Below are positions 20,049-39,842 of a DNA stretch of 64,000 nucleotides, one piece after another (within the stretch, counting starts at the first letter, position 1; each line of letters begins with the position of its first letter). Origin of the DNA: Thermodesulfobacteriota bacterium (GTDB taxonomy: Bacteria; Desulfobacterota; Desulfarculia; JACQYL01); NCBI GenBank assembly GCA_963675595.2, contig CAXXLZ010000002.1:4256001-4320000 (forward strand). Direction: 5' to 3'. Under the pieces are notes generated by a model. That model did no database searches, had not been told where the DNA came from, and saw only the letters and a list, made by a program, of their open reading frames with translations. The translations under genes were made by a program, and so were the position numbers.

Positions 20049-20771
20049 TCAGCCCAAGGTCGTGAGACCATGGAGGATCGCGTATTTGGTCAACTGGGAC
20101 ATTCGCCTGGTTTTCAGCTTCTTCACAATATTCCTGCGGTGATTTTCCACCGTATTCACGCTGACACAGAGTATGGCCGCCATCTCCGCACTGGTCTTCC
20201 CCTCGGTCATACCCTGGAGAACTTCCTTTTCTCTCGAGGTCAACGAAGGAAGCGACCGGTGTCCGTTTCCATTGCCTAGCGCAAGCGCTTGAAACGCCTC
20301 AGTCATCGTTTCAGCGGATTTGCGGCAAAGATACATCCGGCCTTCGAGCACCGAACGAACAGCCGCGACCAGCTCATGCAATCCGCTTTGACTGAGCACA
20401 TACCCCATGGCCCCAGCGACGAGCATTTTGAACATGGGGTCCCATTCCGAATCCGGCGCGACTCCGACCACCCGGGTTTTTCGAAACCGATGCGTGATTT
20501 GGCGCGCGGTCTCGATACCGTTCAAACCCTTCATGGAAGTGTTCACGATCACCACGTCCGAGGGCGTATTGGACAGCAGTTTAAGTGCTTCATGACCTTC
20601 CAAAGCTTCACCCGAAACCTCGAAATCAGGAACAGAGCCCATCGCGTGCCGCAATCCTTCGAGAACCATCCTGTGGTTGTCCACCAGGAATATCCGCTTT
20701 TTCTCGAGTTCTTCCCTTGCTCCGCCTTGCCCCGGTTGCTCCATGATCACCCTCCGTAACAGACGATCCAT
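20049..20771 (-). CDS. NarL/LuxR-family response regulator with atypical receiver
   Basis: REC-like N-terminus (LVDNH; VIVNTSM in place of the Asp site); LTSREKEVL..S.NTVENHRRNI LuxR HTH. Confidence 0.9.
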   Translation of the reverse strand: MDRLLRRVIMEQPGQGGAREELEKKRIFLVDNHRMVLEGLRHAMGSVPDFEVSGEALEGHEALKLLSNTPSDVVIVNTSMKGLNGIETARQITHRFRKTRVVGVAPDSEWDPMFKMLVAGAMGYVLSQSGLHELVAAVRSVLEGRMYLCRKSAETMTEAFQALALGNGNGHRSLPSLTSREKEVLQGMTEGKTSAEMAAILCVSVNTVENHRRNIVKKLKTRRMSQLTKYAILHGLTTLG

Positions 20772-20881
20772 TGTTCAATCGGAAATCCGGCAGAAGATAC
20801 CGAGACCTCCCGAAAGCAAAATGTTGGATTCAGAGAAAAAGCATCCTATAAAAAGATGAAACCGTGCGCAATCGTGATAAT

Positions 20882-20909
20882 CATGAGGTTTTCTCATGAA
20901 ATTCATGAG
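20882..20909. promoter_or_regulatory. Overlapping inverted repeats upstream of the LuxR-type regulator
   Basis: CATGAG-gtttt-CTCATG and CTCATGAA-a-TTCATGAG. Confidence 0.5.
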
Positions 20910-21417
20910 TTAAATCTGTGGAAATCGCTAGACCAGCTAATGGATTTTATGATATGGAGCAGCGAAAAAAGAGGGGTGCAGGGCGGCCATCGGGTCAACC
21001 CATTACGATCTTTAGACTTTTGGGCGGGCATAGTCTCCGGAGAATGATAACACGGCCGTTACAACGTCGGACATGGACACGACGCGTGGGAAGAACAATC
21101 AAGATCCCTGCAGCGGGGGGATGAAAGCCGAGTCAATCGCAGGGAAATAGTTGATAGCCGCTCAAACCGTCCTATGAATGCAAACACCACCTTCGCCGTG
21201 GACATCTCCGCCGAAAGTGGATTCCGGTGTCGCGAGACTCTGAGACCGGCAGGTGCCCGGGACTACCCTCCGGTGAGCCTGTGCAAGGGAAGCTTCGAGC
21301 CTGCGAACGTGATCAATGACAGACCGCCAACGATCGGTCGGAACATTGGGCGGGTTCGGCGTTTTCGGGGGCGAGATGAAAGGCCTCTTCGCCCGTCTCC
21401 CTAAAGCCCGTTCCGCC

Positions 21418-21948
21418 TCATTTTGTTCCTTTTGAAAGCCTGATCGTTCGAGTAACCGTCTCGTGGGTATCATGGGAGATTCTTCCGTCGGCAAGCATCT
21501 CGTCGGCAAGGTCTTGTGCAGCGGCAAGATCAAGACGCCCGTCTTCAAGCCGATCCCGAAGCTCGTCCTTCATTTCCATGGCCTTTCCATCACGTCGTTT
21601 CAGGATTTGATGATCCTCGGAAAGATCGATCAGGCGATCCATCGACAGGTCCACGGAATCCAGGTCTTCTTCGAACTGCTCTCTTCCCTTCTCGGAGAGA
21701 TAGCGATGAAATTTGTCTTCCCATTCCGGCTGTGAGATGAGTCCTTTGTCGTAAAGGTCATCGTACACTTCGAACTTCCGGTCGGCGCTCAGCTCCTCGG
21801 CCTCCAAAGGCTCTTCCGGCTCAGTTTCGAAGGACAACAACTTCTTCCCCGCCTCCATGAACCAATCCATGAGGCCCTCGACCTCCTGATCTTCCTCAAC
21901 AGAATCACAATCGAATTCCTCTTCCCCTCGTTCCCAATCCTTTCTCAC
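21418..21948 (-). CDS. Acidic hypothetical protein
   Basis: GTG start with GGAGG SD; D/E-rich ORF. Confidence 0.65.
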   Translation of the reverse strand: MRKDWERGEEEFDCDSVEEDQEVEGLMDWFMEAGKKLLSFETEPEEPLEAEELSADRKFEVYDDLYDKGLISQPEWEDKFHRYLSEKGREQFEEDLDSVDLSMDRLIDLSEDHQILKRRDGKAMEMKDELRDRLEDGRLDLAAAQDLADEMLADGRISHDTHETVTRTIRLSKGTK

Positions 21949-22085
21949 GGCAAACCTCCCTTTTCCAATAGAAGTGCTCGGAAAGAAATTTTCGTGTTTT
22001 GATTTTTTTCCCACACGTTTTCGATCGAGGGATCACTGGAGGAGTAAGGCAGGACGAAAACCACCCCAAACAAAAGGAGAAAGCC

Positions 22086-22277
22086 ATGAGATTTTCACGT
22101 CACCCCTTCACTGGAATGCTTCAGGTGGACTTCGGGCTTCCGCTTAGAAGAGACGATTTCAATCTGATTCACGATGTCAACGGAAAGACTGTCAGAAGGA
22201 TAGACGACTTCAACTTGGTTAAGGATACGCTCGACCGAACCGTCGAAATATGGAAGCCCAAAATGTACAATGACTGA
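22086..22277 (+). CDS. Small hypothetical protein with an internal RRxDDFNL duplication
   Basis: AAGGAG SD; 63 aa. Confidence 0.55.
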   Translation: MRFSRHPFTGMLQVDFGLPLRRDDFNLIHDVNGKTVRRIDDFNLVKDTLDRTVEIWKPKMYND

Positions 22278-22797
22278 TCCCGCTTTAAAAACTGGTCGCA
22301 GCTTCCGCCGATAATTCTATCTCGGCATGAGATAACCGCTCCCTTACCGAGCCCCTTCGGGGGCTCATCTTCATTTCCTTCCAGCCAAAATTCCCACAAG
22401 CCCTGTCGCGGAATAGCTTCGCTTTCGAGACGTCTCGTATCAGCTTCCCTGTCCTTGTTAATCGAGCCGTACCTGAAGAAACCGGTCGGTCGTCCACCGC
22501 AAAATGGTCAAGGTGTATAACGATCTCAGCGGCGTTGAAAAAAGGCGGCATTCGCGGGATATTGGGGGTGCTCAGGAAAACTTCGAACCTTCAAGCCAAC
22601 ACAAGCCTGCCGACTGCCGTCATAAAGGCCCCGCAGAGCCCCTGTTTGAGAAAGATGCCGCATAATATCGGAGGACCCAAGTTGAAGCTTTTCGTAATGG
22701 CTTACAAACCCATCGCTCTAGTCAATGACACTGATGATATACTGACAAAGTCGTATAACCTTTTTTCATCGGATAGGTAGCATTAAGGAGAATAAAA

Positions 22798-23685
22798 GTG
22801 TCCCTATTCACCATACTCAATAATATAGTCAATCACCCTTTTAACAAATACAATAAGGCTGCGGCGATAGCCATATTTGTAGGTTGGCAAATCGGTAGCA
22901 GATTAGTTCCAGGTGATGTTATTTTTGAATGGGTAAATAATTCCAAACTTGTGGCCAGAACAGGTGAAATTGTTGTTACCGGTAATATTTACTGTGGTCT
23001 TCTTGAATTTCAAGATATGGGTTTCTTGCTTCACGTTTTGAGAGAAAGAGATATTTTTGTTGATATTGGAGCTAATGTTGGAGCCTACACTATTCTGGCA
23101 AGTGCAGCTATTGGTGCAAGCTCCTATTGCTTTGAACCAGTCCCATCAACATACCGTAGGCTAATGACAAATATTAGGCTAAACGCATTAGATAAAAAAG
23201 TTATTTCATTAAATATGGCACTTGGAAATGCAAGAAAACAATTGCTATTTTCTTCAGATGAAAGTGGCACCAGCCATGTCTTGGCAGATAATGAGAAAAC
23301 TAAGAACGAAATTACTGTAAATTGTTCCACTCTTGATGAGGAGCTGAAAGGTGACCCATTTCTAATAAAGATTGATGTGGAAGGATATGAAACTCCAGTA
23401 CTGGAAGGTGCACAACATTCACTTAAGAATCCCAATCTTTGTGGAGTGATTATTGAATTGAACGATTCAGGACAAAGATACGGTTTTGATGAACAAACGA
23501 TATTGCAAATGATGTTTGATCATGGATTTAAAACCTATTCATATTGTCCTTTTGAAAGAAAGCTAAGAATTTTGGGAGGTAAGAACGAATATGAAGGGAA
23601 TACAATTTTTGTAAAGAATATCGATCGCGTCCTAAATAGAATCAATAAAGCTCCAAAGTTTGCTGTTCATGGGGTGTCAATATAG
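22798..23685 (+). CDS. FkbM-family SAM methyltransferase (AT-rich cargo)
   Basis: FVDIGANVG, FEP, IKIDVEGYE. Confidence 0.92.
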   Translation: MSLFTILNNIVNHPFNKYNKAAAIAIFVGWQIGSRLVPGDVIFEWVNNSKLVARTGEIVVTGNIYCGLLEFQDMGFLLHVLRERDIFVDIGANVGAYTILASAAIGASSYCFEPVPSTYRRLMTNIRLNALDKKVISLNMALGNARKQLLFSSDESGTSHVLADNEKTKNEITVNCSTLDEELKGDPFLIKIDVEGYETPVLEGAQHSLKNPNLCGVIIELNDSGQRYGFDEQTILQMMFDHGFKTYSYCPFERKLRILGGKNEYEGNTIFVKNIDRVLNRINKAPKFAVHGVSI

Positions 23686-23807
23686 GTGGATGCATAATCA
23701 AATTAGCTCTACCAGGACTTTAAGGCTTTACGAAGAGGGCAGTGCTCAACTTTAAATCGTGCCGCCCGGTAATTACGGGACGTCGACCATTCCTCCTCCG
23801 ACGACAA

Positions 23808-23999
23808 TTAGAATTCCCGAAGGTCTCCAACGTCGTTCGCAGGCCGGCGTTCTGCTCGATCCGGTCGGTGCAAGGAATTCCGCTCCGAACTCTGCCTGCA
23901 CCAGAACAAATGGGCGTTACCGCGCTTCCGTTCCCGCCACCAGTCCGAAAGGGTCTCATCTTCCTCAAAAGGATGCGTAATCCGAAGTTCCTGTTTCAT
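23808..23999 (-). CDS. Small hypothetical protein, possibly leaderless
   Basis: 63-aa ORF with TTTAAATA 22 nt upstream of the ATG. Confidence 0.35.
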   Translation of the reverse strand: MKQELRITHPFEEDETLSDWWRERKRGNAHLFWCRQSSERNSLHRPDRAERRPANDVGDLREF

Positions 24000-24072
24000 G
24001 GCCACCATTACGGCACGGTGGTATTTAAACCTGTCGAAAAGGGCTCACGAAGAGCCCTCTTCCAACCTACAC

Positions 24073-24945
24073 TCAATCCAGAACGATCTTTCTCCGCGGC
24101 TGGTTTATCAGTTCCCGCACTTGGTCATGCACGGAAGCCATCGCTTCGCGAATCCGGTTCTTGAGGTAACCGCTTTCGCGAATGGACTCGGGCGACCTTC
24201 CGTCGAGCACCGACTCCGCCTGCTGCACGAGTTCCGCCAAGCCATTGTCGTCAAAGACGTTTCTTTGCTTGAAGTGTTCGAAGAACTCGTAGAAGTTCGT
24301 CACCGTCGTTCCTTTGAACTTCTTTGCTTCACCGTCCGGCCCGATACTGAAGCGCTCGCAGATATGCCCGACAAGGTCAGCGAACTCCTCTCGAAGACTC
24401 TGCACGGCAAGCTCACGAGCCTCTTCCATGGTTTGGATGAATTTTCGCTTTTCGCGCTCATACACTTCCGGCGCCAGGAGACCGAACCTGCCGTTGGGGA
24501 CATCAAGAGCCACAAACCGCCACTCGAATGAAAACCGCCTATGAATATCCACGGGGTAGTCCTGCTCATTGAACAGGTCACCGAGGTAGGCAATGGCAGA
24601 GTCCCTGAGCGCCGGATATCGTGAAGCAAAATCGTTGACGAGGTAGCCGAACTCAGATTGAAGCTCCCGCAACTTCTCGTCCACCTCAGTAATCAAGTCT
24701 TTCGGCACGAACATCATGCCGTGGATGGGAAAGGGCAGACTGACCGATGTGAGGTAGAGCCGGGAATTGCCGGCCAACTTCGCAATGGGTTTCAGGCTTT
24801 CCGGGTCCACGAGCTTTTTCGTTGCATGAAGCCATTCGTGGTTGCTGGTCATTTGAGCGAGTTTTCCCTGATCGATCTTTCTTCTCGCTCCCCACATGCT
24901 GATGGAGAGTTGCACCAGGCATCCTTTTTCGAAAATGTTTTCCAT
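24073..24945 (-). CDS. DUF3150-like mobile-element protein
   Basis: L.ISMWGARRKI...TKKLVDP..L.PI pattern; position after DUF1257/DUF2997. Confidence 0.75.
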   Translation of the reverse strand: MENIFEKGCLVQLSISMWGARRKIDQGKLAQMTSNHEWLHATKKLVDPESLKPIAKLAGNSRLYLTSVSLPFPIHGMMFVPKDLITEVDEKLRELQSEFGYLVNDFASRYPALRDSAIAYLGDLFNEQDYPVDIHRRFSFEWRFVALDVPNGRFGLLAPEVYEREKRKFIQTMEEARELAVQSLREEFADLVGHICERFSIGPDGEAKKFKGTTVTNFYEFFEHFKQRNVFDDNGLAELVQQAESVLDGRSPESIRESGYLKNRIREAMASVHDQVRELINQPRRKIVLD

Positions 24946-25037
24946 CGCCGTCTCCTTTCAGAGAAAAGAAAACCCCGATCTCCGACTAACGGAAACCGGG
25001 GCATGCGTTGATTTGTGGTTACAGTGTCGGCGGAAGG

Positions 25038-25238
25038 TCAGCCGCAAAGAGGCAGATACTTCTTAACCGACTCCTTCTCCTCCTGGTAATAGGCCGGTGT
25101 AAGTTCCCGCAAAGTTTCCGCTCCGAGAACCTCTTTCAGGAATTTCGATTCCTCGATACAAGCCTTGCCCTTGAACCCTCTGGTTTCGAGCTTGATCTCG
25201 CCATCCATGGATACTTCCACAATGATTTCCTTCATCAC
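25038..25238 (-). CDS. DUF2997-family protein
   Basis: DGEIKLETRGFKGKAC...LG...TPAYY. Confidence 0.85.
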   Translation of the reverse strand: MMKEIIVEVSMDGEIKLETRGFKGKACIEESKFLKEVLGAETLRELTPAYYQEEKESVKKYLPLCG

Positions 25239-25244
25239 AGCCTC

Positions 25245-25616
25245 CTACATCCGGACGTGGAGCCGGATTGCATTTTCGGTTTTCTTTTCGATCACCGTGT
25301 AGCCTTTACGCCGCGCTTCGGTCCGGGTCTTCTCCACCGCATAGGCCTGCTTCAACAGTCCTCCGTTTACGCCGATTGCTTTTTCCACGTTAGGGTCGTA
25401 GAAGTCGCACTGAAGTTCATACCTGTCATCCATCCTCTGAACGCCGATTTCATAATCCGCACCGGGCAATCGAATGGCATGCTCGCACGCGGCGTTGTTT
25501 CCGTACCACCGGAACTCTTTCCTGCCTTCGAGGAAAATCAGACCCAGCCGATTACACGCAGACTTCAGGACAGCGAGGTCCTTTACTTCGAGTTCGATTT
25601 TGACGATATGACTCAT
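25245..25616 (-). CDS. DUF1257-family protein
   Basis: MSHIVKIELEVKDL..L..A...LG, YEIG, L..D.Y, LKQAYA. Confidence 0.85.
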   Translation of the reverse strand: MSHIVKIELEVKDLAVLKSACNRLGLIFLEGRKEFRWYGNNAACEHAIRLPGADYEIGVQRMDDRYELQCDFYDPNVEKAIGVNGGLLKQAYAVEKTRTEARRKGYTVIEKKTENAIRLHVRM

Positions 25617-26095
25617 CGTATCCTCCGGATCGTTCTGATAGGTTCTTCGTCCCTTCGGCTCGCTCTCCTCGCCCGATTCTCAGCCCAATCCCGGAGCGCT
25701 GAGAGCTGCTCCTTCATGGTTTTGGAAAGCGGAACAATGGTTTCACGGGCGTTTTCCAGGCCATCGAACAGCGAATCCTTGGCCAGCTGCTCGATCTCAG
25801 CGCCTGTCCATTCAGTGAGTTCAGCTGCATACTCGGAAGGTATTTCCGAACCGTATCGTTGATTCATGATTTCGATGATGGCTTCGCGCTCGCTTCTGTT
25901 CGGGATATCCACAAAGAACAGGGCATCAAACCTCCCCGATCGCAGAAACTCAGGCGGAAGCCCCGAGATATCATTGGCGGTTGCCATGACCAGAATCGGA
26001 CTGGTAGTCTCTTGAAGCCACAAGAGCAGATGGCCGAACATGGACGAGGTGGTACCGCCGTCCGTCGCCCCCGAACTTTTGACCCCGGACAGCAC
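25613..26095 (-). CDS. AAA+ ATPase (Ycf46/SpoVK-like), 3' exon
   Basis: TANDISGLPPEFLRSGRFD second region of homology; in frame with the 5' exon after intron removal. Confidence 0.9.
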   Translation of the reverse strand: MLSGVKSSGATDGGTTSSMFGHLLLWLQETTSPILVMATANDISGLPPEFLRSGRFDALFFVDIPNRSEREAIIEIMNQRYGSEIPSEYAAELTEWTGAEIEQLAKDSLFDGLENARETIVPLSKTMKEQLSALRDWAENRARRASRRDEEPIRTIRRIR

Positions 26096-28656
26096 GTAGG
26101 GTAGGCAGCGGCCCTCCTGCAGAAGCAGGCTAAGCCGCCACCCCCCTCCGAACCGTACGTGCGGCTTTCACCGCATACGGCTCTCTACTTACACTTACCT
26201 GGAAATCTCAGGTCAGGCAGAGTCCCGTCATGGAGTTGCCGATGGCAGTGAACGCACAAGACCAGGGTTTTCCGATTGCGTTCACGCATCAGCTCTTTCC
26301 ATGGTTCGTTGCCATCAGCAACGGCACTCATACTCCCGGCGTGGTGCACCTCAAAGTAGCCGCCTGCACGCCCGCAGAACTCGCATTTCTGAGCCCTCAA
26401 ACGAGAAAGGATATCAGAGTACGTGGCCCGATACTTCTTTGTATTGGGTACACTGTCGAGATTCTGCAACAGGGAAGAGCGGTAAAATTTGAGGTCCTTC
26501 AACCTGAAGAGCCGAGTGGTGCGTAATTTCCCATGGTACCATTCGGTAATAGCGTATTCCCCCGGTTCAACCTTCAGACGCCTCCTCACTGTTCTCTTGC
26601 TGCAGCGGTGTTTTCGGGCAAATGTTCTCGTCAAACTTCGGAACCAGACGGACTGCAGTTTCTGCAATGCCCGAACTGCCCCTTGAGCGAGAACATAGTA
26701 ATTGGCAAAGCCCCTCAACTCCGCGTTGTAAATCGTGAGGATTTGTGTATCCATTAGGTTGACCAAGTTAAGTCGGGGCATGACTTCAAAGTTCTCATAG
26801 TTGCCATATCCGTTCTTCTTGCAGAACGCCGCCATCTTATCGCTTGGGACTTTAAGCTGGATTCGACCAGCCCCAAGCCTCCTGGTCGTGTAGGTCCCGC
26901 CAAGTTTTACCTTGACCGATTTTCCCACCGGGTAGGTTGTGATGTCATACCCGAGGAAGCGCGTTTCCTCAGTACAATGACGGAGGCCTGATTTCTCTTC
27001 GGAGATCTGCAGGCGCAAATGTTCTTGGACAAAACCACGAACAGTCTGCATGACCTGCCTGCAATCCTCCTTGGAGCCGATCATGCCGATGAGAAAATCA
27101 TCGGCGTACCGGATATACATCAGTCTCTTGTAACCTTCGTCATGGAAATCCAAGGAAGGGACTAAACGTCGCATCCTGCAATGTTCCCGAAGTTCGGCTT
27201 CTATTTCTTTGAGCTTTTCGGTCTCCCCAGCCTGCTGAGCCCGGGCGAACCTTATCCTTTGACGACGGACCAGATACTGATAGCGGAGATACTCTTCGTT
27301 CCGGCGTCTTCGCTTTCCCTTGTTGAATTCCTGAACCAGACTTTCCATGAACTCGTCGAGCTCATGAAGGTAAATATTGGCTAGGATCGGGGAAATAATT
27401 CCACCTTGAGGAGTTCCACTATACGTGGCATGGTATTTCCAATCATCAATATAGCCGGCCTTAAGCATGGCCTTGATGAGATTGATGAAACGCCTGTCGT
27501 CAATCCGTTTCTCCAACAGTCTTATCAACACCTTATGGTCGATATTGTCGAAGAAACCCCGGATATCCATGTCGATGATCCACTTAACGCCGGTCCAGTA
27601 TTTCTGAAGATACCGCAAAGCGGTATGACACGATCTTTCCGGACGAAATCCATGCGAGCGATCAGAAAAGATCGGCTCGTAGATTCGTTCCAGAATCGCT
27701 CGTGTCACTTCCTGGATCAGCTTGTCATCTCCGGAAGGTATGCCCAAGGGTCGCAACTTACCGTTGGCCTTGGGGATGTAAACGCGTTTTGATGGTTTGA
27801 ACTTGTAACGACCGTCTTTGAGCAGCTTAATAATGTTCTTTGCCCGCTCATCGGAAAAGCCGTCCAGGGTCACGCCGTCCACGCCCTTCGTCATAGCACC
27901 TTTGTTTGAATAGATATTGGCGTAGGCGTCTTCCCATAAAGTCGGGTTTTCCATGAGCCGAAATAGGCCGTTAACACGTTTCCCCTGCTTGGAGAGTTTT
28001 CCAAGAGCGTTCAACCTCTTGATGGTCGTAGCGGACAGCATCAGCACATCCTCCTTTCAGAGTGTTGAACACGTTGCATAAGCTGTCTTCCTTCCCCCGG
28101 ATAGAGGACCCTTCGTCGATGTCGCCACCGACTTATAGCCATATCCGTATCCCGCAATTGCGAGATCTGCAGAACCCATTACAGGCCCACCTTGGGTACT
28201 ATGAAGACTCCGTCGCCATACAGGTCCGAGCCGTGTGCTCGTGACCAGCTTAGGCGATCCCGCATTTACGCCAGATCAAAGATTCGCCGTGGTTAGGTCT
28301 CCCGTTCGTCCCTTTTATCCTTCTCGTCGAAGGCATGCCGGACAGACGGAATATGCAGGTCGAAAAGTGGGCCTACATACAGTCCGGACTGGCGTTTCAG
28401 CTACTTTCACCAGTGCCCGAGCTACGGCCATGAGGACTGGGGTTCAAGCAGTTTAGCCTTGACCATACACGGCTTACGCTGACATCATCGTTGGTCGTAG
28501 CTACCTTCTTTGATGCCTTTTCCCAACATGCTGCACTCCCCCCTCCCTTTCGGGACAAGGACCATTGCTGGTCAGAGATAAGTTGGGTGCGTACAGGATA
28601 TTTCCGTAATCTTGGTGACTTCCGTCACACTCCTATCTGGCGCCAATACGGCGCAC
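26096..28656 (-). mobile_element. Group II intron, copy 1 (2561 bp)
   Basis: 5' GTGCG at 28656; domain V GAGCCGTATGCGGTGAAAGCCGCACGTACGGTTC at about 26150-26183; 3' end ...CCTAC at 26096. Confidence 0.95.
26185..28047 (-). CDS. ltrA: Group II intron reverse transcriptase/maturase with HNH endonuclease
   Basis: RPLGIP, GTPQGGIISPILANIYL, YIRYADD; C-terminal CEFC..EVHH..LCVHCH. Confidence 0.96.
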   Translation of the reverse strand: MLMLSATTIKRLNALGKLSKQGKRVNGLFRLMENPTLWEDAYANIYSNKGAMTKGVDGVTLDGFSDERAKNIIKLLKDGRYKFKPSKRVYIPKANGKLRPLGIPSGDDKLIQEVTRAILERIYEPIFSDRSHGFRPERSCHTALRYLQKYWTGVKWIIDMDIRGFFDNIDHKVLIRLLEKRIDDRRFINLIKAMLKAGYIDDWKYHATYSGTPQGGIISPILANIYLHELDEFMESLVQEFNKGKRRRRNEEYLRYQYLVRRQRIRFARAQQAGETEKLKEIEAELREHCRMRRLVPSLDFHDEGYKRLMYIRYADDFLIGMIGSKEDCRQVMQTVRGFVQEHLRLQISEEKSGLRHCTEETRFLGYDITTYPVGKSVKVKLGGTYTTRRLGAGRIQLKVPSDKMAAFCKKNGYGNYENFEVMPRLNLVNLMDTQILTIYNAELRGFANYYVLAQGAVRALQKLQSVWFRSLTRTFARKHRCSKRTVRRRLKVEPGEYAITEWYHGKLRTTRLFRLKDLKFYRSSLLQNLDSVPNTKKYRATYSDILSRLRAQKCEFCGRAGGYFEVHHAGSMSAVADGNEPWKELMRERNRKTLVLCVHCHRQLHDGTLPDLRFPGKCK

Positions 28657-31217
28657 GTAGGGTAGGCAGCGGCCCTCCTGCAGAAGCAGGCTAAGCCGCC
28701 ACCCCCCTCCGAACCGTACGTGCGGCTTTCACCGCATACGGCTCTCTACTTACACTTACCTGGAAATCTCAGGTCAGGCAGAGTCCCGTCATGGAGTTGC
28801 CGATGGCAGTGAACGCACAAGACCAGGGTTTTCCGATTGCGTTCACGCATCAGCTCTTTCCATGGTTCGTTGCCATCAGCAACGGCACTCATACTCCCGG
28901 CGTGGTGCACCTCAAAGTAGCCGCCTGCACGCCCGCAGAACTCGCATTTCTGAGCCCTCAAACGAGAAAGGATATCAGAGTACGTGGCCCGATACTTCTT
29001 TGTATTGGGTACACTGTCGAGATTCTGCAACAGGGAAGAGCGGTAAAATTTGAGGTCCTTCAACCTGAAGAGCCGAGTGGTGCGTAATTTCCCATGGTAC
29101 CATTCGGTAATAGCGTATTCCCCCGGTTCAACCTTCAGACGCCTCCTCACTGTTCTCTTGCTGCAGCGGTGTTTTCGGGCGAATGTTCTCGTCAAACTTC
29201 GGAACCAGACGGACTGCAGTTTCTGCAATGCCCGAACTGCCCCTTGAGCGAGAACATAGTAATTGGCAAAGCCCCTCAACTCCGCGTTGTAAATCGTGAG
29301 GATTTGTGTATCCATTAGGTTGACCAAGTTAAGTCGGGGCATGACTTCAAAGTTCTCATAGTTGCCATATCCGTTCTTCTTGCAGAACGCCGCCATCTTA
29401 TCGCTTGGGACTTTAAGCTGGATTCGACCAGCCCCAAGCCTCCTGGTCGTGTAGGTCCCGCCAAGTTTTACCTTGACCGATTTTCCCACCGGGTAGGTTG
29501 TGATGTCATACCCGAGGAAGCGCGTTTCCTCAGTACAATGACGGAGGCCTGATTTCTCTTCGGAGATCTGCAGGCGCAAATGTTCTTGGACAAAACCACG
29601 AACAGTCTGCATGACCTGCCTGCAATCCTCCTTGGAGCCGATCATGCCGATGAGAAAATCATCGGCGTACCGGATATACATCAGTCTCTTGTAACCTTCG
29701 TCATGGAAATCCAAGGAAGGGACTAAACGTCGCATCCTGCAATGTTCCCGAAGTTCGGCTTCTATTTCTTTGAGCTTTTCGGTCTCCCCAGCCTGCTGAG
29801 CCCGGGCGAACCTTATCCTTTGACGACGGACCAGATACTGATAGCGGAGATACTCTTCGTTCCGGCGTCTTCGCTTTCCCTTGTTGAATTCCTGAACCAG
29901 ACTTTCCATGAACTCGTCGAGCTCATGAAGGTAAATATTGGCTAGGATCGGGGAAATAATTCCACCTTGAGGAGTTCCACTATACGTGGCATGGTATTTC
30001 CAATCATCAATATAGCCGGCCTTAAGCATGGCCTTGATGAGATTGATGAAACGCCTGTCGTCAATCCGTTTCTCCAACAGTCTTATCAACACCTTATGGT
30101 CGATATTGTCGAAGAAACCCCGGATATCCATGTCGATGATCCACTTAACGCCGGTCCAGTATTTCTGAAGATACCGCAAAGCGGTATGACACGATCTTTC
30201 CGGACGAAATCCATGCGAGCGATCAGAAAAGATCGGCTCGTAGATTCGTTCCAGAATCGCTCGTGTCACTTCCTGGATCAGCTTGTCATCTCCGGAAGGT
30301 ATGCCCAAGGGTCGCAACTTACCGTTGGCCTTGGGGATGTAAACGCGTTTTGATGGTTTGAACTTGTAACGACCGTCTTTGAGCAGCTTAATAATGTTCT
30401 TTGCCCGCTCATCGGAAAAGCCGTCCAGGGTCACGCCGTCCACGCCCTTCGTCATAGCACCTTTGTTTGAATAGATATTGGCGTAGGCGTCTTCCCATAA
30501 AGTCGGGTTTTCCATGAGCCGAAATAGGCCGTTAACACGTTTCCCCTGCTTGGAGAGTTTTCCAAGAGCGTTCAACCTCTTGATGGTCGTAGCGGACAGC
30601 ATCAGCACATCCTCCTTTCAGAGTGTTGAACACGTTGCATAAGCTGTCTTCCTTCCCCCGGATAGAGGACCCTTCGTCGATGTCGCCACCGACTTATAGC
30701 CATATCCGTATCCCGCAATTGCGAGATCTGCAGAACCCATTACAGGCCCACCTTGGGTACTATGAAGACTCCGTCGCCATACAGGTCCGAGCCGTGTGCT
30801 CGTGACCAGCTTAGGCGATCCCGCATTTACGCCAGATCAAAGATTCGCCGTGGTTAGGTCTCCCGTTCGTCCCTTTTATCCTTCTCGTCGAAGGCATGCC
30901 GGACAGACGGAATATGCAGGTCGAAAAGTGGGCCTACATACAGTCCGGACTGGCGTTTCAGCTACTTTCACCAGTGCCCGAGCTACGGCCATGAGGACTG
31001 GGGTTCAAGCAGTTTAGCCTTGACCATACACGGCTTACGCTGACATCATCGTTGGTCGTAGCTACCTTCTTTGATGCCTTTTCCCAACATGCTGCACTCC
31101 CCCCTCCCTTTCGGGACAAGGACCATTGCTGGTCAGAGATAAGTTGGGTGCGTACAGGATATTTCCGTAATCTTGGTGACTTCCGTCACACTCCTATCTG
31201 GCGCCAATACGGCGCAC
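28657..31217 (-). mobile_element. Group II intron, copy 2 (2561 bp), directly abutting copy 1
   Basis: Same ends as copy 1; junction ...CCTAC|GTGCG at 28657/28656. Confidence 0.95.
28746..30608 (-). CDS. ltrA: Group II intron reverse transcriptase/maturase with HNH endonuclease (protein identical to copy 1)
   Basis: Identical 620-aa translation. Confidence 0.96.
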   Translation of the reverse strand: MLMLSATTIKRLNALGKLSKQGKRVNGLFRLMENPTLWEDAYANIYSNKGAMTKGVDGVTLDGFSDERAKNIIKLLKDGRYKFKPSKRVYIPKANGKLRPLGIPSGDDKLIQEVTRAILERIYEPIFSDRSHGFRPERSCHTALRYLQKYWTGVKWIIDMDIRGFFDNIDHKVLIRLLEKRIDDRRFINLIKAMLKAGYIDDWKYHATYSGTPQGGIISPILANIYLHELDEFMESLVQEFNKGKRRRRNEEYLRYQYLVRRQRIRFARAQQAGETEKLKEIEAELREHCRMRRLVPSLDFHDEGYKRLMYIRYADDFLIGMIGSKEDCRQVMQTVRGFVQEHLRLQISEEKSGLRHCTEETRFLGYDITTYPVGKSVKVKLGGTYTTRRLGAGRIQLKVPSDKMAAFCKKNGYGNYENFEVMPRLNLVNLMDTQILTIYNAELRGFANYYVLAQGAVRALQKLQSVWFRSLTRTFARKHRCSKRTVRRRLKVEPGEYAITEWYHGKLRTTRLFRLKDLKFYRSSLLQNLDSVPNTKKYRATYSDILSRLRAQKCEFCGRAGGYFEVHHAGSMSAVADGNEPWKELMRERNRKTLVLCVHCHRQLHDGTLPDLRFPGKCK

Positions 31218-32141
31218 CTTCTCGAGTTCATCGCACCAGATCACCGCTTTCCCGAAAGCATCAATCGTTGCAGTAGCTTGCCTCATCTTACGTTCGCTCT
31301 CTCCGACGAGAGAACCTTTCAAAGCGGACAAATCCAACCGGATGAGCGGCCATCCGAGGATCGAAGCGGCTGCTTTGCAGGAGAGCGATTTCCCGCAGCC
31401 CGGCACCCCTACCAAAAGTAACGCCTTGGGCCTCGGCAGATGCTCGTTTCCAGGCTCGAAGGCTTTCTTTCGGTTGTTGATGTACTCCTTCAGGAGATCG
31501 AGGCCTCCGACTTCCTCGATGGACACCGGCGGCCAGAACTCCATCAGTCCCGTGCGTTTGATCATCTGCTTTTTCTGCTCGGTAACGATCTCCCTGCAGA
31601 ACCGTTTTCGTTCCACCAAGGACCTGGCAAACGCGGTCTCAGCCTCGAACTCGGTAAGTCCCAGGGCGGCTTCCACAGCCTCCACGTCGGCTTCGATCCC
31701 CACGCTCTCCCCAAGCTCTTCCTGAATCCTGCGAAGCTCCTCAAGCCCCGGAAGTTCAAAGTCCAGCATGGTGAAATACTTTTCCAGCTCCGCCGGCAGG
31801 CTTACCTGAGGCCCAACCAAGACCAGACAACATCCTTGGCCTTTCCAGGAGGGCAGGCTGTTCTGGATTTCCTGGATGATATCCACGGAACCTAAAGAGT
31901 GGTGGAAGTTGTGCACGAAGAGCACGGTGTCCTCTTTTCCCGAGAGCCACTTGAGACTGCTCAATGGATCACTGGAATCGTCGTTTCGCATGCCGGACTG
32001 CAAATCCACGATGCCGCGTTGACAATCCCAGGAAAACGTCCTCCATCCTTCGGGTCGAATGGAGCCGACCGCTCGATCCGGTTCAAGGGTGACGATGTAA
32101 AGCGCCGGATACCCGGCTTTGAGATAACTCGAAATGTCCAT
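31218..32141 (-). CDS. AAA+ ATPase (Ycf46/SpoVK-like), 5' exon (308 codons)
   Basis: GVPGCGKS Walker A, IWCDELEK Walker B ending at the intron; spliced product 468 aa. Confidence 0.9.
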
Positions 32142-32269
32142 ATCGTTCTCCTTCCGTTCGGAAATAGAAAAGGCCGCTTCCGACGCACGGCCGAAAACAG
32201 CCCATAAAAAAAGCGGCCGAAGCCGCCGCCCTCCATGCTCTTTGATTCCGTTCTTCTTTTCTTCTTTGT

Positions 32270-32575
32270 TCAGAAGAGATACTCCTCCACGAGTTCGTAG
32301 GGAAATTCCTCCACTTCCGCTTCTTCGTTGAACTGCTCGAGCCCGCCTCTGCCGGCCACCGGCTCCTCCACCGGCTCCTCCACCGGAACAGCCCTGCAGA
32401 GGATCAAATGTCCACCGAACCTTTGTCGCAAAACCCCGAGTTCTGAAACCGCCTCGACCGGGTCTCGGAATCCAACCGGGTCATCCTGACCCACCACCAT
32501 GAGCCCCAGCGGATGACGGGGATTGATGATGATGTAGACCGAAGCCTCGGTCTCGTTGATTTCGACTGACCGCAT
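32270..32575 (-). CDS. Hypothetical protein
   Basis: AAGGAG SD; 101 aa. Confidence 0.65.
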   Translation of the reverse strand: MRSVEINETEASVYIIINPRHPLGLMVVGQDDPVGFRDPVEAVSELGVLRQRFGGHLILCRAVPVEEPVEEPVAGRGGLEQFNEEAEVEEFPYELVEEYLF

Positions 32576-32651
32576 AACCGTTCTCCTTTCGTAAGAGACA
32601 AAAAAACCGCCCTAAGACGGCTACTGACTCATTCCAGGACAAGAAGTTCAA

Positions 32652-32969
32652 TCAGACCCGGACACGGATTTTGTCCACGTCCTTGACCTTCTTGGGCTCC
32701 CAGTAGAGGTCGCGATCCACTTCGAATCCCGGCCTCACCTTCAAATCCCGAAGTTCACCGAAGGAGATATAGCCCCACTCAGCCATTTCCGGGTCACCCA
32801 GGATCGCGTAACCCCAGAACAGGTCCTCTCCGTCGTATTCCACGACGTACCAGTCAAAGGCTCCAAGGAAAAAATGCAGCCTGACCAGCTTCTCTTCGAT
32901 GGGCGTTCCCTCGGTCTCATAGAGCCTCGGAAGCCTGTCCAATTCCTCTTTCGTCGGTATGTTCCACAT
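32652..32969 (-). CDS. DUF2958-family protein
   Basis: LPRLYETE, WYVVEYD, EWGYISFGEL, EVDRDLYW. Confidence 0.85.
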   Translation of the reverse strand: MWNIPTKEELDRLPRLYETEGTPIEEKLVRLHFFLGAFDWYVVEYDGEDLFWGYAILGDPEMAEWGYISFGELRDLKVRPGFEVDRDLYWEPKKVKDVDKIRVRV

Positions 32970-33105
32970 GGTAAATCACCTCCTGCTTTTTCAATTCTCC
33001 GCCGCAGAATACGCAGCGGCACTGATCGAGATAGGGAAACTCTCTTCCTTCGATGAAAACTTGAAGGAAGTACTCACTGCCGCAAAACCGGCACTGAACC
33101 CGCAT
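32917..33105 (-). CDS. Small Zn-ribbon protein
   Basis: MRVQCRFCG...CVFCGG; AGGAGG SD. Confidence 0.55.
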   Translation of the reverse strand: MRVQCRFCGSEYFLQVFIEGREFPYLDQCRCVFCGGELKKQEVIYHVEHTDERGIGQASEAL

Positions 33106-33115
33106 GACGCTCCTC

Positions 33116-33397
33116 CTAAAACAAGCTCGTGTGATGTCCGCAGTAGGGGCAAAATCTGTCGCCGAAGTCGTTGTAATCGAGCCCCAAAAAGAGCCACTCG
33201 ATTCGGTAGATGTTTCCGCAACGCCCGCAAGTTGCCGGCTCGGGCCGATCCCTGCAGGGCTTCCTGAGCATCTTCTTCCGGTTGAAACAACTGCGGCCGC
33301 AGCTCTCGCAGATTTCCCATTCATCGAATACCTGAAGGATTCCGTTGCACTCCGGGCACTGCTTCTCTTCAATATTTGCGTAAAGCGCATGATCCAT
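33116..33397 (-). CDS. Multi-CxxC Zn-finger protein
   Basis: CPEC, CESC, CGRC, CPYC; AGGAGG SD. Confidence 0.7.
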   Translation of the reverse strand: MDHALYANIEEKQCPECNGILQVFDEWEICESCGRSCFNRKKMLRKPCRDRPEPATCGRCGNIYRIEWLFLGLDYNDFGDRFCPYCGHHTSLF

Positions 33398-33478
33398 TTC
33401 TTCCTCCTGAAACAAAAAAAGGCCTGGAACTCCATGGTTCCCGCCTCGTTAGGTCGACACTAATTCCCGTATGTATGA

Positions 33479-33934
33479 TCAATGAGTCTTGATGACGCCC
33501 CGCTCGGACAGACTTTCAAAGCGGCCTTCATCGCCCACAACCACATGATCCACCACCCCGACATCGAAGAGTTCGGCACAACGGGTGAGTTTCTCGGTGA
33601 TCGCGATATCTTCTGCGCTGGGTTCCGGGCATCCGCTGGGATGATTATGGATGAACGCCACTTTAGCGGAATTACTCAGGAAAACGGCCTTGAATATTTC
33701 CCGTACGGATAGAATGGTCTGGCTCAAGGTTCCCACGCTTACCAGATGGATGCAGTTCACGTAGTTCTTGACGTTCAGGCACACCAGAAGAAACATCTCC
33801 CGGTCCGCGTTTCCCATGAACTTCATGCCGAGTTCAGCCAAGTCCTGCGGTCCTCGGATTGGCTTCTTCCCATAGGGGATCGAGCCGTCCCTGACCATTT
33901 TGACGCTCACGATATCGATTCTTTCCTTCATCAT
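33479..33934 (-). CDS. radC: RadC/JAB-domain protein
   Basis: DRE.F, HNHPSG.PEPSAED, DHVVVG. Confidence 0.92.
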   Translation of the reverse strand: MMKERIDIVSVKMVRDGSIPYGKKPIRGPQDLAELGMKFMGNADREMFLLVCLNVKNYVNCIHLVSVGTLSQTILSVREIFKAVFLSNSAKVAFIHNHPSGCPEPSAEDIAITEKLTRCAELFDVGVVDHVVVGDEGRFESLSERGVIKTH

Positions 33935-34007
33935 AGAAAACCTCCCTGGAAATCCCTTGATTGGGGCTGTCCACAATGCTCGGACAGCCCGTGAGGTCGA
34001 TAATGCC

Positions 34008-34265
34008 CTAAAACGGAATATCGTCTCCGGCCTGACCCATCGACTTGATGCCGAAGTCCAGGAATGCCTGCCGAAACAATTCCGAGGCGGTCGGGAGATC
34101 ACTCGCCCGAAGATTGGGTGAGGTCTTCCAGTTGCCGTCGGCATCCTTGAACACGCGTTGCAGACTGAAGGTATGGTAGTTCCCTTTTGCGCCGTCGTTT
34201 TCCCAGACACTGACGACGACTCCGTTTGCCCGATACTTCCTCACCGGTTTGTTGCTCTCGCTCAT
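34008..34265 (-). CDS. Small PC4/SpoVG-like ssDNA-binding protein with DDIPF tail
   Basis: VSVWEN..SLQRVFKDADGNWK; C-terminal DDIPF; GGAGG SD. Confidence 0.65.
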   Translation of the reverse strand: MSESNKPVRKYRANGVVVSVWENDGAKGNYHTFSLQRVFKDADGNWKTSPNLRASDLPTASELFRQAFLDFGIKSMGQAGDDIPF

Positions 34266-34358
34266 GATCCTTCCTCCTCTTTCGTTGATATGATGCTCTA
34301 ACAGCCGCTCCATCCACAGCGGATGCACAGCGGACATCGTCCGTCGCGGTGGAGAATT

Positions 34359-34658
34359 TCACCGCAGTCCGGACATCGCTCGACCCTTCTCGGACTCGGT
34401 TTGTTCGGTTGCTTGACTTCCGAGGTAATGGATCGCCTTTTTGACGGTTTCTTGGTGATCATAGAATTCATCCAACAACTCCTTTCTCTTGGGTAATTCA
34501 TTGGTTTTGAAGATTTCCTTTGCTTCGAGATGCAGGCCGATCAGGCCCAGTAACAGCTCCGCTCCGAATTGATGGGACGGCTGGACCGACTGCGCCGCTT
34601 CCCGCCACTCGCGTCTCAGGCAAAAGAGGCCCCGACGCAACTTGGACGACGCATTCAA
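34359..34658 (-). CDS. Hypothetical protein
   Basis: GAGGAGGTGA SD before a TTG start; 99 aa. Confidence 0.55.
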   Translation of the reverse strand: MNASSKLRRGLFCLRREWREAAQSVQPSHQFGAELLLGLIGLHLEAKEIFKTNELPKRKELLDEFYDHQETVKKAIHYLGSQATEQTESEKGRAMSGLR

Positions 34659-34873
34659 GATTCACCTCCTCTCTCTGTGTGTAGTGCTCGTCGTTGTTGA
34701 AACGTGTGATTGAAGCTGTCGCTAAAACGAAGGGGATACGGGCCGTCTTCACGGACGGCGCGCTGCAAAACGGTGGGTACAGGCTTCACCCGACAAAATC
34801 GCTGTAGGTGGTCCGGGGAAACCCGCATTGGTGACACGGATCGCTAAACGCCTGGCTCTGCAAAGGTGTCCGC

Positions 34874-36910
34874 TTAACGCTCCGCTTTTTCGGTGAGTAG
34901 GATGGGGATGATCTTTTCGATGAAGTCTTTGGCGAGGTAGGCTTGAATGCCCTGAATCTTGAGGAGTGATTGAATTTTGGTGAGGGCTTCGGGGTTCGTC
35001 GCGATCATGAACTTCCGAATGGAGACGTGGTTCGAGAGGGTCTCGACGTTCTTCCTGATGTCCGATTTTCCGGTCTCGACCTGAACCGCCAAACCACCGT
35101 TGCAGTCGGCCACGAGATCCAGGTTGTCCTTTTCCAGGAACACTCGGCAGTGCCCGGCAAGCGACTGTCTGATTCTTTCGACCCAGTAGTTGTGTTCGAC
35201 ACCGCCCCGAACTCGAGAATTCTCGAGTTTCAGGCCTTCTCGGTGAAGTTGCTCTCCGGCCTGCGGCGTCAATTCAAAGAGCCGGTTTCGGTCCACAAGG
35301 ACTTCCTTGAGCAGGCCTTTCGTGAGGAGACCGTCCAGGCAGAGAGTTCCCTCCCGAGGGTTCATTCCGAGCTTCTTGTAACGTTTTTGAACTCCGTCGA
35401 AAGGATGAAGCGCGATGTCATCCAGCAGAATCCGCTCCATGGGGGAGAGTGTTTCCGAGCTTGAAAGCTCATGAAAGGAGTTTATTTCAGGAGTTAGAGC
35501 TTGGTTTGGATGTTCATTTACTGAAGAAGAGTTTATTCTAGTTTTTATGACTTTATCCCGGACCATTCCCTTGTCGATTTTGAATTCCGGAACCGATATC
35601 AGGAACGGAAACGGGACCCTTCCGGTCTTCACAATGGCCTCTCCCACCTTGAGCATGCCGTAGTAAGTTTCATTCCCGGTGGGAATGAGCTGGGAACGGC
35701 TCAAACTCGAGAAATCTTGAGACAGAGAGGTTTGAAAGCCGATCCGGGTATAGACATTCCCAAGAGCTGAGACTGAAACTTTGTGGGGATGCTGATCGAG
35801 AATCACGATGCCTTCCCCGAGCTCTCTGATCTCCCTCATCATGACGTCCGTGATGTCTTCTTCCTTGCTCGTTCGAAGAAGCAGGTGATGGGCTTCCTCA
35901 ATGACGATCATGTGCTTTAGAATCTCCCTTTCCGGCTCCTGCATCCGGTAGAAATAGATCCAAAGAAGCAGGCTTCCGATGATGAAGGTCTTGTCCGAAT
36001 CCGAAAGTCCGTCCAGCTCCAGGATCACGTTTTTCCGGAGCAGTTTTGGGATTGAAATGGGACTGAGACTGGTAATGAGACTGGGACTGAGAGCGGGATT
36101 GAGCTTGGGAATAGGACTGGGATTGGGACTGGGACTGGGACTGACGCTGGGAGATTGAAAATTCACAACCTCGTTCAGGCCCGGGAAGGTAAGACTGTTC
36201 AGCGTTCTCTTGGCCGAACTCAGCCAGAGCATCTCTCTGCCCCGGCGGTTTTGCTTGTCGATATAGCGTTTCATGTCCGCGAAGGTCGGGAGACTCATGG
36301 CGTCCATCAAGACGTCCGACGCTCCCGGACCTAACAAATATGCCTTCTCGATAATCTCCATCAGTTTCTTCGACCAGATGGGAGGCTCGACTCCGGGCGG
36401 AGGAATCTTGGGATTGAAACGGAAAGGGCTGACCTCCCTTCCCACGGTAAAGATCAGGATGTCCTCATTCCGGAAATCCGGATGGGTCAAAAGGTCCCGG
36501 TAGTTTCGTTTCCAATCGAAGATCAGAAACGGGATCTTCGCCTTGACGAATTCCCGGATAAGATTCATGCACGCGGTAGTCTTGCCGGAACCGGTCTGCC
36601 CGAAAAGACCCACATGTCGAATCAACTCCTCCTTTCTGAGACCAAAGGGAAAGAGCTTCCTGCCGCAATAGGAGACGTGTCCGAGTTGCAAATCGCCGGC
36701 CGCCTCATTCTTTCCCGGCGGCGGCAGCATAACGGCGTTTTCGAACGCCACTCCCGTATGCTGCAGGAGCATGGAATCGACCATGGATTCGATTTCGCGC
36801 TTGGCTCTCGGATTCTCCTCTATCTGATAAAGCGACCACAAAGCCCGAAGCTCTCCGGAAGAAACGAAGGGCTCGAGCCGTCTCAGCTTTTCGGCAACGG
36901 TTACGATCAT
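34874..36910 (-). CDS. HerA/VirB4/TraD-like P-loop ATPase with C-terminal wHTH and nuclease-like domain
   Basis: HVGLFGQTGSGKT, IFDWK..Y, IEEAH, LDQHP; C-terminal EH...DLV...AVQVETGKS. Confidence 0.85.
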   Translation of the reverse strand: MIVTVAEKLRRLEPFVSSGELRALWSLYQIEENPRAKREIESMVDSMLLQHTGVAFENAVMLPPPGKNEAAGDLQLGHVSYCGRKLFPFGLRKEELIRHVGLFGQTGSGKTTACMNLIREFVKAKIPFLIFDWKRNYRDLLTHPDFRNEDILIFTVGREVSPFRFNPKIPPPGVEPPIWSKKLMEIIEKAYLLGPGASDVLMDAMSLPTFADMKRYIDKQNRRGREMLWLSSAKRTLNSLTFPGLNEVVNFQSPSVSPSPSPNPSPIPKLNPALSPSLITSLSPISIPKLLRKNVILELDGLSDSDKTFIIGSLLLWIYFYRMQEPEREILKHMIVIEEAHHLLLRTSKEEDITDVMMREIRELGEGIVILDQHPHKVSVSALGNVYTRIGFQTSLSQDFSSLSRSQLIPTGNETYYGMLKVGEAIVKTGRVPFPFLISVPEFKIDKGMVRDKVIKTRINSSSVNEHPNQALTPEINSFHELSSSETLSPMERILLDDIALHPFDGVQKRYKKLGMNPREGTLCLDGLLTKGLLKEVLVDRNRLFELTPQAGEQLHREGLKLENSRVRGGVEHNYWVERIRQSLAGHCRVFLEKDNLDLVADCNGGLAVQVETGKSDIRKNVETLSNHVSIRKFMIATNPEALTKIQSLLKIQGIQAYLAKDFIEKIIPILLTEKAER
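36058..36152 (-). repeat. Hexamer-derived Pro/Ser low-complexity insert in the ATPase
   Basis: (GGGACT/GAGACT/GGGATT)n encoding SPSVSPSPSPNPSPIPKLNPALSPSLITSLSP. Confidence 0.8.
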
Positions 36911-37677
36911 TGGAATTCCCTCTCACACCACCCCCCGCATAGACAGGGATAGTCCTCTTCACGCTCGGACAGGGTCAGCTCGTGCATTCGGCGGATTTCT
37001 TCCGCAGCCCAATCCGCGAGTTCTTGGGTAGGCTTGAAAATTTTGGGATTGTCTTTGGAGGGTGGGAATTTCAGGAAATGAACTGAGACTCTATCGGGAA
37101 GCTTTCCGTTCACTTCCCGCTCGAGGAGGGCGTAGATCGCAAGCTGGAGTTTGATGTCGGGTGTAATCTCCTGGTATTTCGAAGTCTTATAATCCCTGAT
37201 CTCGACGAATTCTCGAGAATAACGGGCATCCAAGATGCCTTGGGCACCATGTATTTGACTCACAAGCCGTATTTCCGGCTCAGGCGGGCTTCTTCCGCTG
37301 CTCATTTCGCGGATGAACTGGTGAAGCCAGTTCAACGCCATCTTCCTGGCCTCGACGAGTTGGCCTTCGGCCTCGTCCCGACCGCCGGAGAGCGTCCGAA
37401 TCTCGAGAATTCTCGAGTTCCACAGGAAATCCACCCTGTCCAGAATCCGCTTTCGGCTTTCCGCATAGGGCGCTTCGAGAATCTCGGGAGTATATTCCTG
37501 AACAAAGGCTTCCGCAGCCTGGTGAACCACCTGCCCCACGATGAAGCACATCTTGGGTTTGGTTTTCAGTTTCCTGACGTATCTAAGATAGAACTTTCTC
37601 GGGCATCCCCATCGGAACCGCGCATCCTTTTTGTAGGAGAGAATGGCCGACGGGCTCAGGATTCGTTTGAAGGTCAT
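36907..37677 (-). CDS. PD-(D/E)XK nuclease (Cas4/AddB-like)
   Basis: LSPSAI..Y, CPRKFYLRY, G..VH, GILD, IRDYKTSK, QLAIYA, C-terminal C.WC. Confidence 0.88.
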   Translation of the reverse strand: MTFKRILSPSAILSYKKDARFRWGCPRKFYLRYVRKLKTKPKMCFIVGQVVHQAAEAFVQEYTPEILEAPYAESRKRILDRVDFLWNSRILEIRTLSGGRDEAEGQLVEARKMALNWLHQFIREMSSGRSPPEPEIRLVSQIHGAQGILDARYSREFVEIRDYKTSKYQEITPDIKLQLAIYALLEREVNGKLPDRVSVHFLKFPPSKDNPKIFKPTQELADWAAEEIRRMHELTLSEREEDYPCLCGGWCEREFQ

Positions 37678-37835: not shown

Positions 37836-37837
37836 TC

Positions 37838-39806: not shown

Positions 39807-39842
39807 CCGGTGAACTTTAATAAGTGAAATTCAGAGAGAGAT

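Follow-up and report, generated by a model that had tools for sequence, protein, structure and literature searches.

Two Complete Group II Introns in Head-to-Tail Tandem within an AAA+ ATPase Gene: a Probable Case of Retrohoming into an Occupied Site

Introduction

How do two complete copies of one group II intron come to lie head to tail, with no spacer between them, at a single site of one gene? This question is raised by a 64,000-nt stretch of the genome of a Thermodesulfobacteriota bacterium (assembly GCA_963675595.2, contig CAXXLZ010000002.1, positions 4,256,001 to 4,320,000 of the forward strand; hereafter, the window), in which such a pair interrupts a gene for an AAA+ ATPase. The best explanation, to which we give a probability of about 0.68, is that the intron retrohomed a second time, into the point where the 5' exon meets an intron already resident at the site. 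Below, we describe the tandem, its host gene and the intron class, the features of the junction that bear on this explanation, and the alternatives.

Results

Two Complete Introns Adjoin at One Site

The two introns and the two exons of the host gene are the following.

28657..31217, minus strand: upstream (5') intron copy, 2561 nt, with C at intron position 2037 (G at window position 29181).
26096..28656, minus strand: downstream (3') intron copy, 2561 nt, with T at intron position 2037 (A at window position 26620).
31218..32141, minus strand: AAA+ ATPase exon 1, 308 codons, ending in ...CDELEK; its last ~15 nt contain intron-binding site 1 (IBS1) and the candidate for intron-binding site 2 (IBS2).
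25613..26095, minus strand: AAA+ ATPase exon 2, 160 codons and a stop; the protein starts with VLSGVKSS and the DNA with GTGCTGTCC.

Sequence comparison and a repeat search placed the two units side by side without spacer, and on the minus strand the order reads exon ...CTCGAGAAG / GTGCGCC...CCTACCCTAC / GTGCGCC...CCTACCCTAC / GTGCTGTCC... exon. The intron-intron junction, CCCTAC/GTGCGCC, lies at 28656/28657, and intact exons were found on both outer sides. The period of the repeat equals the intron length exactly, and its limits are those of the intron within a 4-nt GTGC ambiguity: the repeat extends 4 nt into the 3' exon side (26092-26095) because exon 2 begins with GTGC, as the intron does. 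This is not a chance repeat. The sole mismatch between the two units, A at 26620 versus G at 29181, is the third base of codon 476 of the intron open reading frame (ORF), where TTT and TTC both encode Phe. The initial annotation of this locus had described two complete abutting introns with this single synonymous difference, and both statements were borne out, with coordinates, junctions and the 2561-nt length all correct. A twintron, i.e., one intron nested in another, was ruled out, as both copies are complete, uninterrupted and side by side.

The introns split the gene for a 468-aa AAA+ ATPase directly after the DELEK motif, just past the Walker B region, and the products of exons 1 and 2 each match the Pfam AAA domain. 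When the exons were joined without both introns, they gave a continuous protein of 308 + 160 = 468 aa, collinear with intron-less homologues. One of these, P0004, has 468 aa, is 81% identical and reads ...CDEVEK/ALAGVKSS... across the site; the exon 2 product is 82% identical to its residues 310-468. In addition, an uninterrupted orthologue was found in the genome of one relative, where the site reads GAAAAA/GCGCTC. Since the intron-less 468-aa homologues are collinear across the site, removal of both introns restores a normal AAA+ ATPase. Two truncated homologues of the ATPase, P0048 (360 aa) and P0081 (339 aa), both diverge from the family at ...SSMFG(H/T)/YAELIIM..., about 22 codons downstream of the intron site, and this suggests another insertion at a second conserved site.

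The Intron Is of the LtrA-Like Type

Each copy contains an ORF for an intron-encoded protein (IEP).

28746..30602, minus strand: IEP ORF of the upstream copy, with ATG at intron position 616; reverse transcriptase (RT) with YADD, maturase and HNH endonuclease. The open frame begins earlier, with GTG at intron position 610 (window 30608).
26185..28041, minus strand: IEP ORF of the downstream copy, encoding the same protein as the ORF at 28746..30602.

Both copies begin with GTGCG and end with CCCTAC, fitting the GUGYG/AY boundaries, and the same ends were found in the related introns of loci L041, L042 and L043. Rfam model RF00029 recognized domain V/VI at the 3' end of each copy (28657-28746 and 26096-26185, model positions 1-77) with 73.4 bits, the gathering score being 40, and an E value of 2e-13. 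The identical 620-codon ORFs, in whose translation YADD is visible, encode the domains RVT_1 (1.2e-37), Intron_maturas2 (2e-09) and AI2M-like_HNH (7.8e-11). The closest solved relative of the IEP is LtrA of Ll.LtrB (5g2x), which aligned over residues 26-605 with an E value of 5.6e-127; other intron RTs matched the RT part only. The class was assigned from the IEP because Rfam, even at a permissive threshold, gave no domain I-IV (D1-D4) class model for the intron and returned only RF00029 and a weak D5 family. Judged by its IEP, the intron is an LtrA-like, IIA-type mobile group II intron of the mitochondrial-like class with an endonuclease domain, and it looks intact and active.

The closest loci by IEP were found in metagenome-assembled genomes (MAGs) of Desulfamplus (77% identity) and of a Deltaproteobacteria member (63%). 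The names of the host-gene homologues agree with this and suggest a placement in Thermodesulfobacteriota. In the Desulfamplus locus (L041), the 3' exon of the related intron encodes a helicase with a DECH box, and on a Citrobacter contig (L043) the 5' exon ends in ...GGCACCGGGAAG, coding for the GTGK of a Walker A motif. Conserved NTPase motifs may be a preferred target of this intron clade.

All Four Sites in the Genome Are Occupied

The host gene belongs to a repeated genomic island.

15208..43274, no strand assigned: genomic island with the host gene, ~28 kb, limits approximate, defined by blastn against the own genome.

The assembly comprises 3 contigs and 6.79 Mb, with 98% completeness. 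The ~28-kb island occurs in four copies that are 89-97% identical (blastn), and it lies between chromosomal histidine-kinase genes. A search of the own genome with exon 1 detected four paralogues and no further one; all four are interrupted, and thus no empty homing site is left in the cell. The intron sits at the same codon boundary in each, between DE[L/T]EK and VLSG. There are five full intron copies in the genome, i.e., the tandem pair and one in each of the other three islands. No two of these copies differ by more than 1 nt, against an identity of only 89-97% among the islands. Because the introns are nearly identical and the islands have diverged, we infer that the intron has been mobile among the islands recently.

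The base at intron position 2037 divides the copies into two alleles. The C allele is found in the upstream tandem copy and the copy at C2:1643189, and the T allele in the downstream tandem copy and those at C2:913088 and C1:1429482. Two insertions from two donor alleles would account for this pattern with no extra step, though gene conversion may also have played a part.

The Occupied Junction Retains the 5' Part of the Homing Site

Recognition of the 5' exon was assigned to exon-binding site 1 (EBS1).

30923..30928, minus strand: EBS1 of the upstream copy, CUUUUC, intron positions 290-295.
28362..28367, minus strand: EBS1 of the downstream copy, CUUUUC.

The partner of EBS1 is GA(A/G)AAG, the final 6 nt of the 5' exon. 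This IBS1 is GAAAAG at three of the sites and GAGAAG, with one G-U pair, at the tandem site. The pairing covaries in both close relatives examined (2/2), with UUUUUC/GAAAAA in L041 and UUGGCC/GGUCAG in L042.

The occupied 5' junction retains the whole 5' exon plus positions +1 to +4. It had been noted in the initial annotation that the start of the resident intron resembles that of the 3' exon, and indeed both read GTGC from +1 to +4; the accompanying claim that the junction recreates the homing site was upheld for the 5' exon and these four bases, and not for +5 to +11, which all differ. Genome-wide, the motif ATGA[AG]-N3-GA[AG]AAG occurs 45 times, 16 of them with G at +1. When followed by GTGC, it occurs only at the four occupied 5' junctions, which are therefore the best remaining homing-site look-alikes in the cell.

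The other end of the resident intron offers nothing comparable: its 3' end (CCUACCCUAC) is unlike IBS1/IBS2, and insertion at the junction between intron and 3' exon was ruled out for this reason. A newcomer would enter on the exon 1 side only, which would make the upstream C copy the newer insertion and the downstream T copy the resident.

The event can be pictured as follows. A ribonucleoprotein from a C-allele copy would reverse-splice into the top strand at the precise point where the 5' exon meets the resident T-allele intron. There, it would find all the 5'-exon determinants, namely the distal protein-contacted part, the candidate IBS2 and IBS1, and the first four bases downstream (GTGC) match those of the true 3' exon. 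Complementary DNA (cDNA) synthesis and repair would then fix the second copy upstream of the first.

Expression of the ATPase would next depend on the removal of both copies. Splicing of the upstream copy would come first; with exon 1 then ligated to the downstream intron, a normal precursor would result, from which the downstream copy would be spliced second; alternatively, a single long excision would run from the first 5' site to the second 3' site. The downstream copy would be unable to define its own 5' splice site, because it is preceded by intron sequence and not by IBS1/IBS2. Ordered double splicing is a reasonable expectation from this arrangement.

Points That Weigh against Retrohoming into the Junction

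Several observations speak against this explanation or leave parts of it loose. First, the EBS2/IBS2 assignment is not firm: a search by exact complements gave no match, and the candidate CUCAU (~223-227), facing AUGA(G/A) at -13 to -9, forms a weak duplex of -3.9 to -7.6 kcal/mol and is unsupported by L042. Second, IIA-type introns have a delta-delta' pair between the base immediately 5' of EBS1 and +1 of the 3' exon, and here this base, A289, is unable to pair with the +1 G at any of the four sites. The equivalent position does pair in L041 (A/U) and L042 (U/A). Given this mismatch, the +1 contact argues neither for nor against use of the occupied junction. Third, positions +5 to +11 differ at every base between the occupied and the empty site (GTGCTGTCCGG versus GTGCGCCGTAT), and LtrA requires 3'-exon contacts, notably T+5, for bottom-strand cleavage. 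Because the 3'-exon bases from +5 on were not kept, the event may have needed endonuclease-independent priming.

Moreover, a metagenome contig, L064, carries a same-intron tandem whose 3' exon begins with TTCACG, indicating that such a tandem can form without any likeness to the 3' exon. Of the proposals in the initial annotation, re-homing into the own junction stands as the best-supported mechanism, through the retained target, the unique motif, the alleles and the precedent of the groEL intron discussed below. The likeness of GTGCT to GTGCG as its enabling cause is unsupported. Nor do the two copies present here bear out an ability to build arrays, a claim that reaches further than a pair.

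Finally, the tandem rests on one assembly and was seen in none of the relatives searched. It was not found in any of 60 relatives, none of 400 other genomes of the phylum had its 19-nt junction pattern, and the 21 loci with related IEPs had one copy each within the flanks examined. Contig data did not bridge the junction either. Seven sequencing runs contain part of the region, all as contigs (Logan), whereas the locus turned up in no RNA run. A 1501-nt query centred on the intron-intron junction was compared with the contigs of four of them (X2, X4, X5 and X6). None of the 13 contig records from X2, X4 and X5 bridged 28656/28657, and X6 gave no match.

Possible Formation of the Tandem by Another Route

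A real tandem could also have arisen in other ways: (a) the resident recombined with a copy of the intron in the form of circular double-stranded DNA; (b) a dimeric cDNA was made, either when a circle or lariat was read through or because two RNAs had reverse-spliced before the cDNA was synthesized; or (c) a duplication at the GTGC microhomology was followed by gene conversion. All three would yield exactly the sequence observed, the GTGC at the start of both intron and exon 2 would serve as microhomology, and a Campbell-type integration with the crossover upstream of position 2037 would also put C upstream and T downstream. Sequence alone cannot separate routes (a) and (b) from retrohoming.

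Circular DNA, however, is not known as an established intermediate of group II introns. Both copies would be identical if they came from a single dimeric cDNA or a simple duplication, so that an extra conversion step would be needed for the two alleles, and it would take chance, or some part played by the intron machinery, for a duplication to end exactly at the intron limits. For Ll.LtrB, excised RNA circles with head-to-tail junctions are documented (PMC4478347), in favour of such routes; retrohoming, on the other hand, has direct experimental support (PMC12584367). On balance, we consider another route unlikely.

A Possible Assembly Artefact

The site could instead hold one intron, with the assembler having passed twice through a five-copy repeat. 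In support of this, no contig of X2, X4 or X5, which come from the same named organism, bridges 28656/28657, as described above. This silence is nevertheless uninformative. Beyond the intron ends, the contigs continue into exon 1 of the GAAAAG type and exon 2 of the L005 type, i.e., those of other paralogues, and the tandem site's own GAGAAG exon-intron junction is likewise absent from them; since that junction is missing too and only one path through the repeat is represented, the contigs say nothing on the tandem, either way. Furthermore, the genome is in 3 contigs and 98% complete, and a 5.1-kb tandem should be within long-read reach; a graph assembler would loop only if the reads contained the tail-to-head junction. 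The two copies differ by one base, both alleles are present elsewhere in the genome, and the X4 contigs break near 29181, as expected with both alleles in the reads.

Two more abutting dimers of multi-copy elements, both insertion sequences (ISs), are present in the genome, and they can be read as a warning sign, since they could mean a systematic assembly habit. Their form, however, is target duplication-IS-target duplication-IS-target duplication, which is that of re-insertion and not of a looped path. Taken together, these data make an artefact improbable.

The dimers themselves lie at C2:3852916-3856689, with a period of 1883 nt, an IS of ~1876 nt and ~25 genome copies, and at C2:2114155-2116944, with a period of 1397 nt, an IS of ~1389 nt and ~17 genome copies. 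In both, it is as if the second copy had landed in the duplicated target of the first.

That the dimer is kept by selection, as a brake on AAA+ ATPase expression through the need for two splicing rounds, is very improbable: nothing direct speaks for it beyond a tolerated arrangement with an intact spliced frame, and the dimer is at only one of the four paralogous sites, its near-identical copies indicate a recent event, and the arrangement was not found in the relatives searched.

Tail-to-Head Junctions in Other Genomes and Metagenomes

A 500-nt junction query matched as a whole in the own genome only; among the 60 relatives, 8 had nothing but short matches, and almost all of these fell on domain V. 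The 19-nt tail-to-head pattern of the intron clade was found on eight metagenome contigs, seven of which carry a group II 3' end (RF00029). The RF00029 match ends at the junction in five; in the other two it lies on the identical tail of the complete copy next to it, since the contig end truncates the tail at the junction. A second copy is visible in five of the eight contigs, and the intron families are other than that of the window. In L064, a tail of 43 nt precedes a complete copy of 2460 nt, which ends in that same tail and is followed by a 3' exon; L068 is a 2442-nt unit whose ends overlap by 55 nt. Two intron heads are spaced 683 nt apart in L062 and 706 nt apart in L066, and L063 has a second domain V ~700 nt away.

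The contig L066 (5553 nt) has further peculiarities. The tail-to-head junction occurs twice on opposite strands (1195-1213 minus, 4311-4329 plus), with two D1-D4-7 matches facing each other in a palindromic arrangement that possibly results from chimeric assembly. One unit, moreover, has a 5' exon with CCCTAC at its end, as would be the case if the diverged tail of a third intron stood before it.

Neighbouring Genes and Other Repeats

Besides the ATPase, the island encodes an Orc1/Cdc6-like AAA protein, PRiA4_ORF3, a LuxR-type regulator, an FkbM methyltransferase, DUF3150, DUF2958, RadC, a HerA-like ATPase and a PD-(D/E)XK nuclease. The gene for the Orc1/Cdc6-like protein (17076-18350, minus strand; Cdc6_C winged helix at 1.6e-24, Cdc6 lid and AAA_22) adjoins the PRiA4_ORF3-like gene. 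Just outside the island, a ~1.56-kb repeat at 11801-13365, with five genome copies that are 98-99.9% identical, is probably an IS element. Repeats of ~380-470 nt at 46719-47109 and 48622-49476 are 82-92% identical to several places in the genome.

Elsewhere in the genome, further domain V matches of 34-40 bits, mostly just below the Rfam cut-off, were detected at nine places (C2:170933, 198550, 1197298, 1403238, 3247413 and 729531; C3:14215; C2:333232; C1:184714). Seven places also share a 53-nt stretch, 83% identical, with the ORF of the tandem intron, and this second set looks like at least one more multi-copy intron family. In addition, C1:420017-421054 is a perfect 2 x 519-nt tandem duplication inside an ORF, with no other copy in the genome.

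Discussion

The nearest precedent for this locus is EcKTE56.groEL, a IIB1 intron of E. coli. As reported in PMC12584367, the second copy enters exactly where groEL ends and the resident copy begins, through an EBS3(U)-IBS3(G) wobble with the first G of the resident intron; only +1 of the 3' exon is needed, and the tandems make up 4.2% of wild-type integrants and ~3% of intron-containing nanopore reads. The likeness to the present pair lies in the spacer-less junction of an intron 3' end with GTGCG, where the first G of the resident replaces +1 of the 3' exon. The two cases also differ. The groEL intron is at a stop codon and its tandems were seen in over-expression assays, as there described (PMC12584367), whereas here an LtrA-like, IIA-type intron with an HNH domain interrupts a coding sequence in a natural genome, the occupied and the empty site agree from +1 to +4, and the copies are distinguishable alleles.

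As for Ll.LtrB, the present intron shares with it a full-length IEP alignment, the RT-maturase-HNH layout, the 5' GUGCG and 3' AY ends, EBS1/IBS1 in the expected places and an ATPase-type host gene of a mobile island. It differs in its target site and in the base next to EBS1, which here is unpaired with +1. In our literature searches, no tandem was described for Ll.LtrB; nor did these searches, with supplements outside their scope, return natural tandem group II introns in bacteria beyond PMC12584367. In the relevant passages of PMC8742464, 'tandem' refers to unrelated repeats.

Side-by-side, or tandem, twintrons of fungal mitochondria resemble the pair in that two self-splicing introns are adjacent in one gene and ordered splicing is predicted. 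As treated in the sections of PMC8393795 on these elements, they are group I introns, usually unlike each other, for which ordered splicing by a 'ratchet' is predicted and some are thought to splice as one unit; they are thus not two copies of one retroelement at its own junction.

In the best-supported interpretation, the tandem adds a new, natural example to a known kind of event, in an intron class other than that of the precedent, at a coding site and in a saturated genome. It would parallel in nature what over-expression in E. coli has so far demonstrated, and would broaden it to an LtrA-type intron with an endonuclease and to a location within a coding sequence. It would also show what options a homing element has when all cognate sites of the genome are taken. 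The two alleles would mark the order of arrival, and, as empty and occupied sites differ from +5, the locus could serve as a test system for the need for 3'-exon recognition. Such dimers are easily collapsed or doubted in assemblies, and double insertions are relevant to intron-based gene targeting.

Tentatively, we put forward a broader reading, which is possible though not favoured: that self-junction homing is a regular escape route for several group II intron classes once their cognate sites are filled. It is suggested by the IIA-type case in a genome with 4/4 sites filled, by seven of the eight metagenome contigs and by the IIB1 laboratory case. If it were true, the copy number of such introns would not be capped by the number of sites, and spacer-less dimers or arrays would be common in nature, hidden by their collapse in short-read assemblies.

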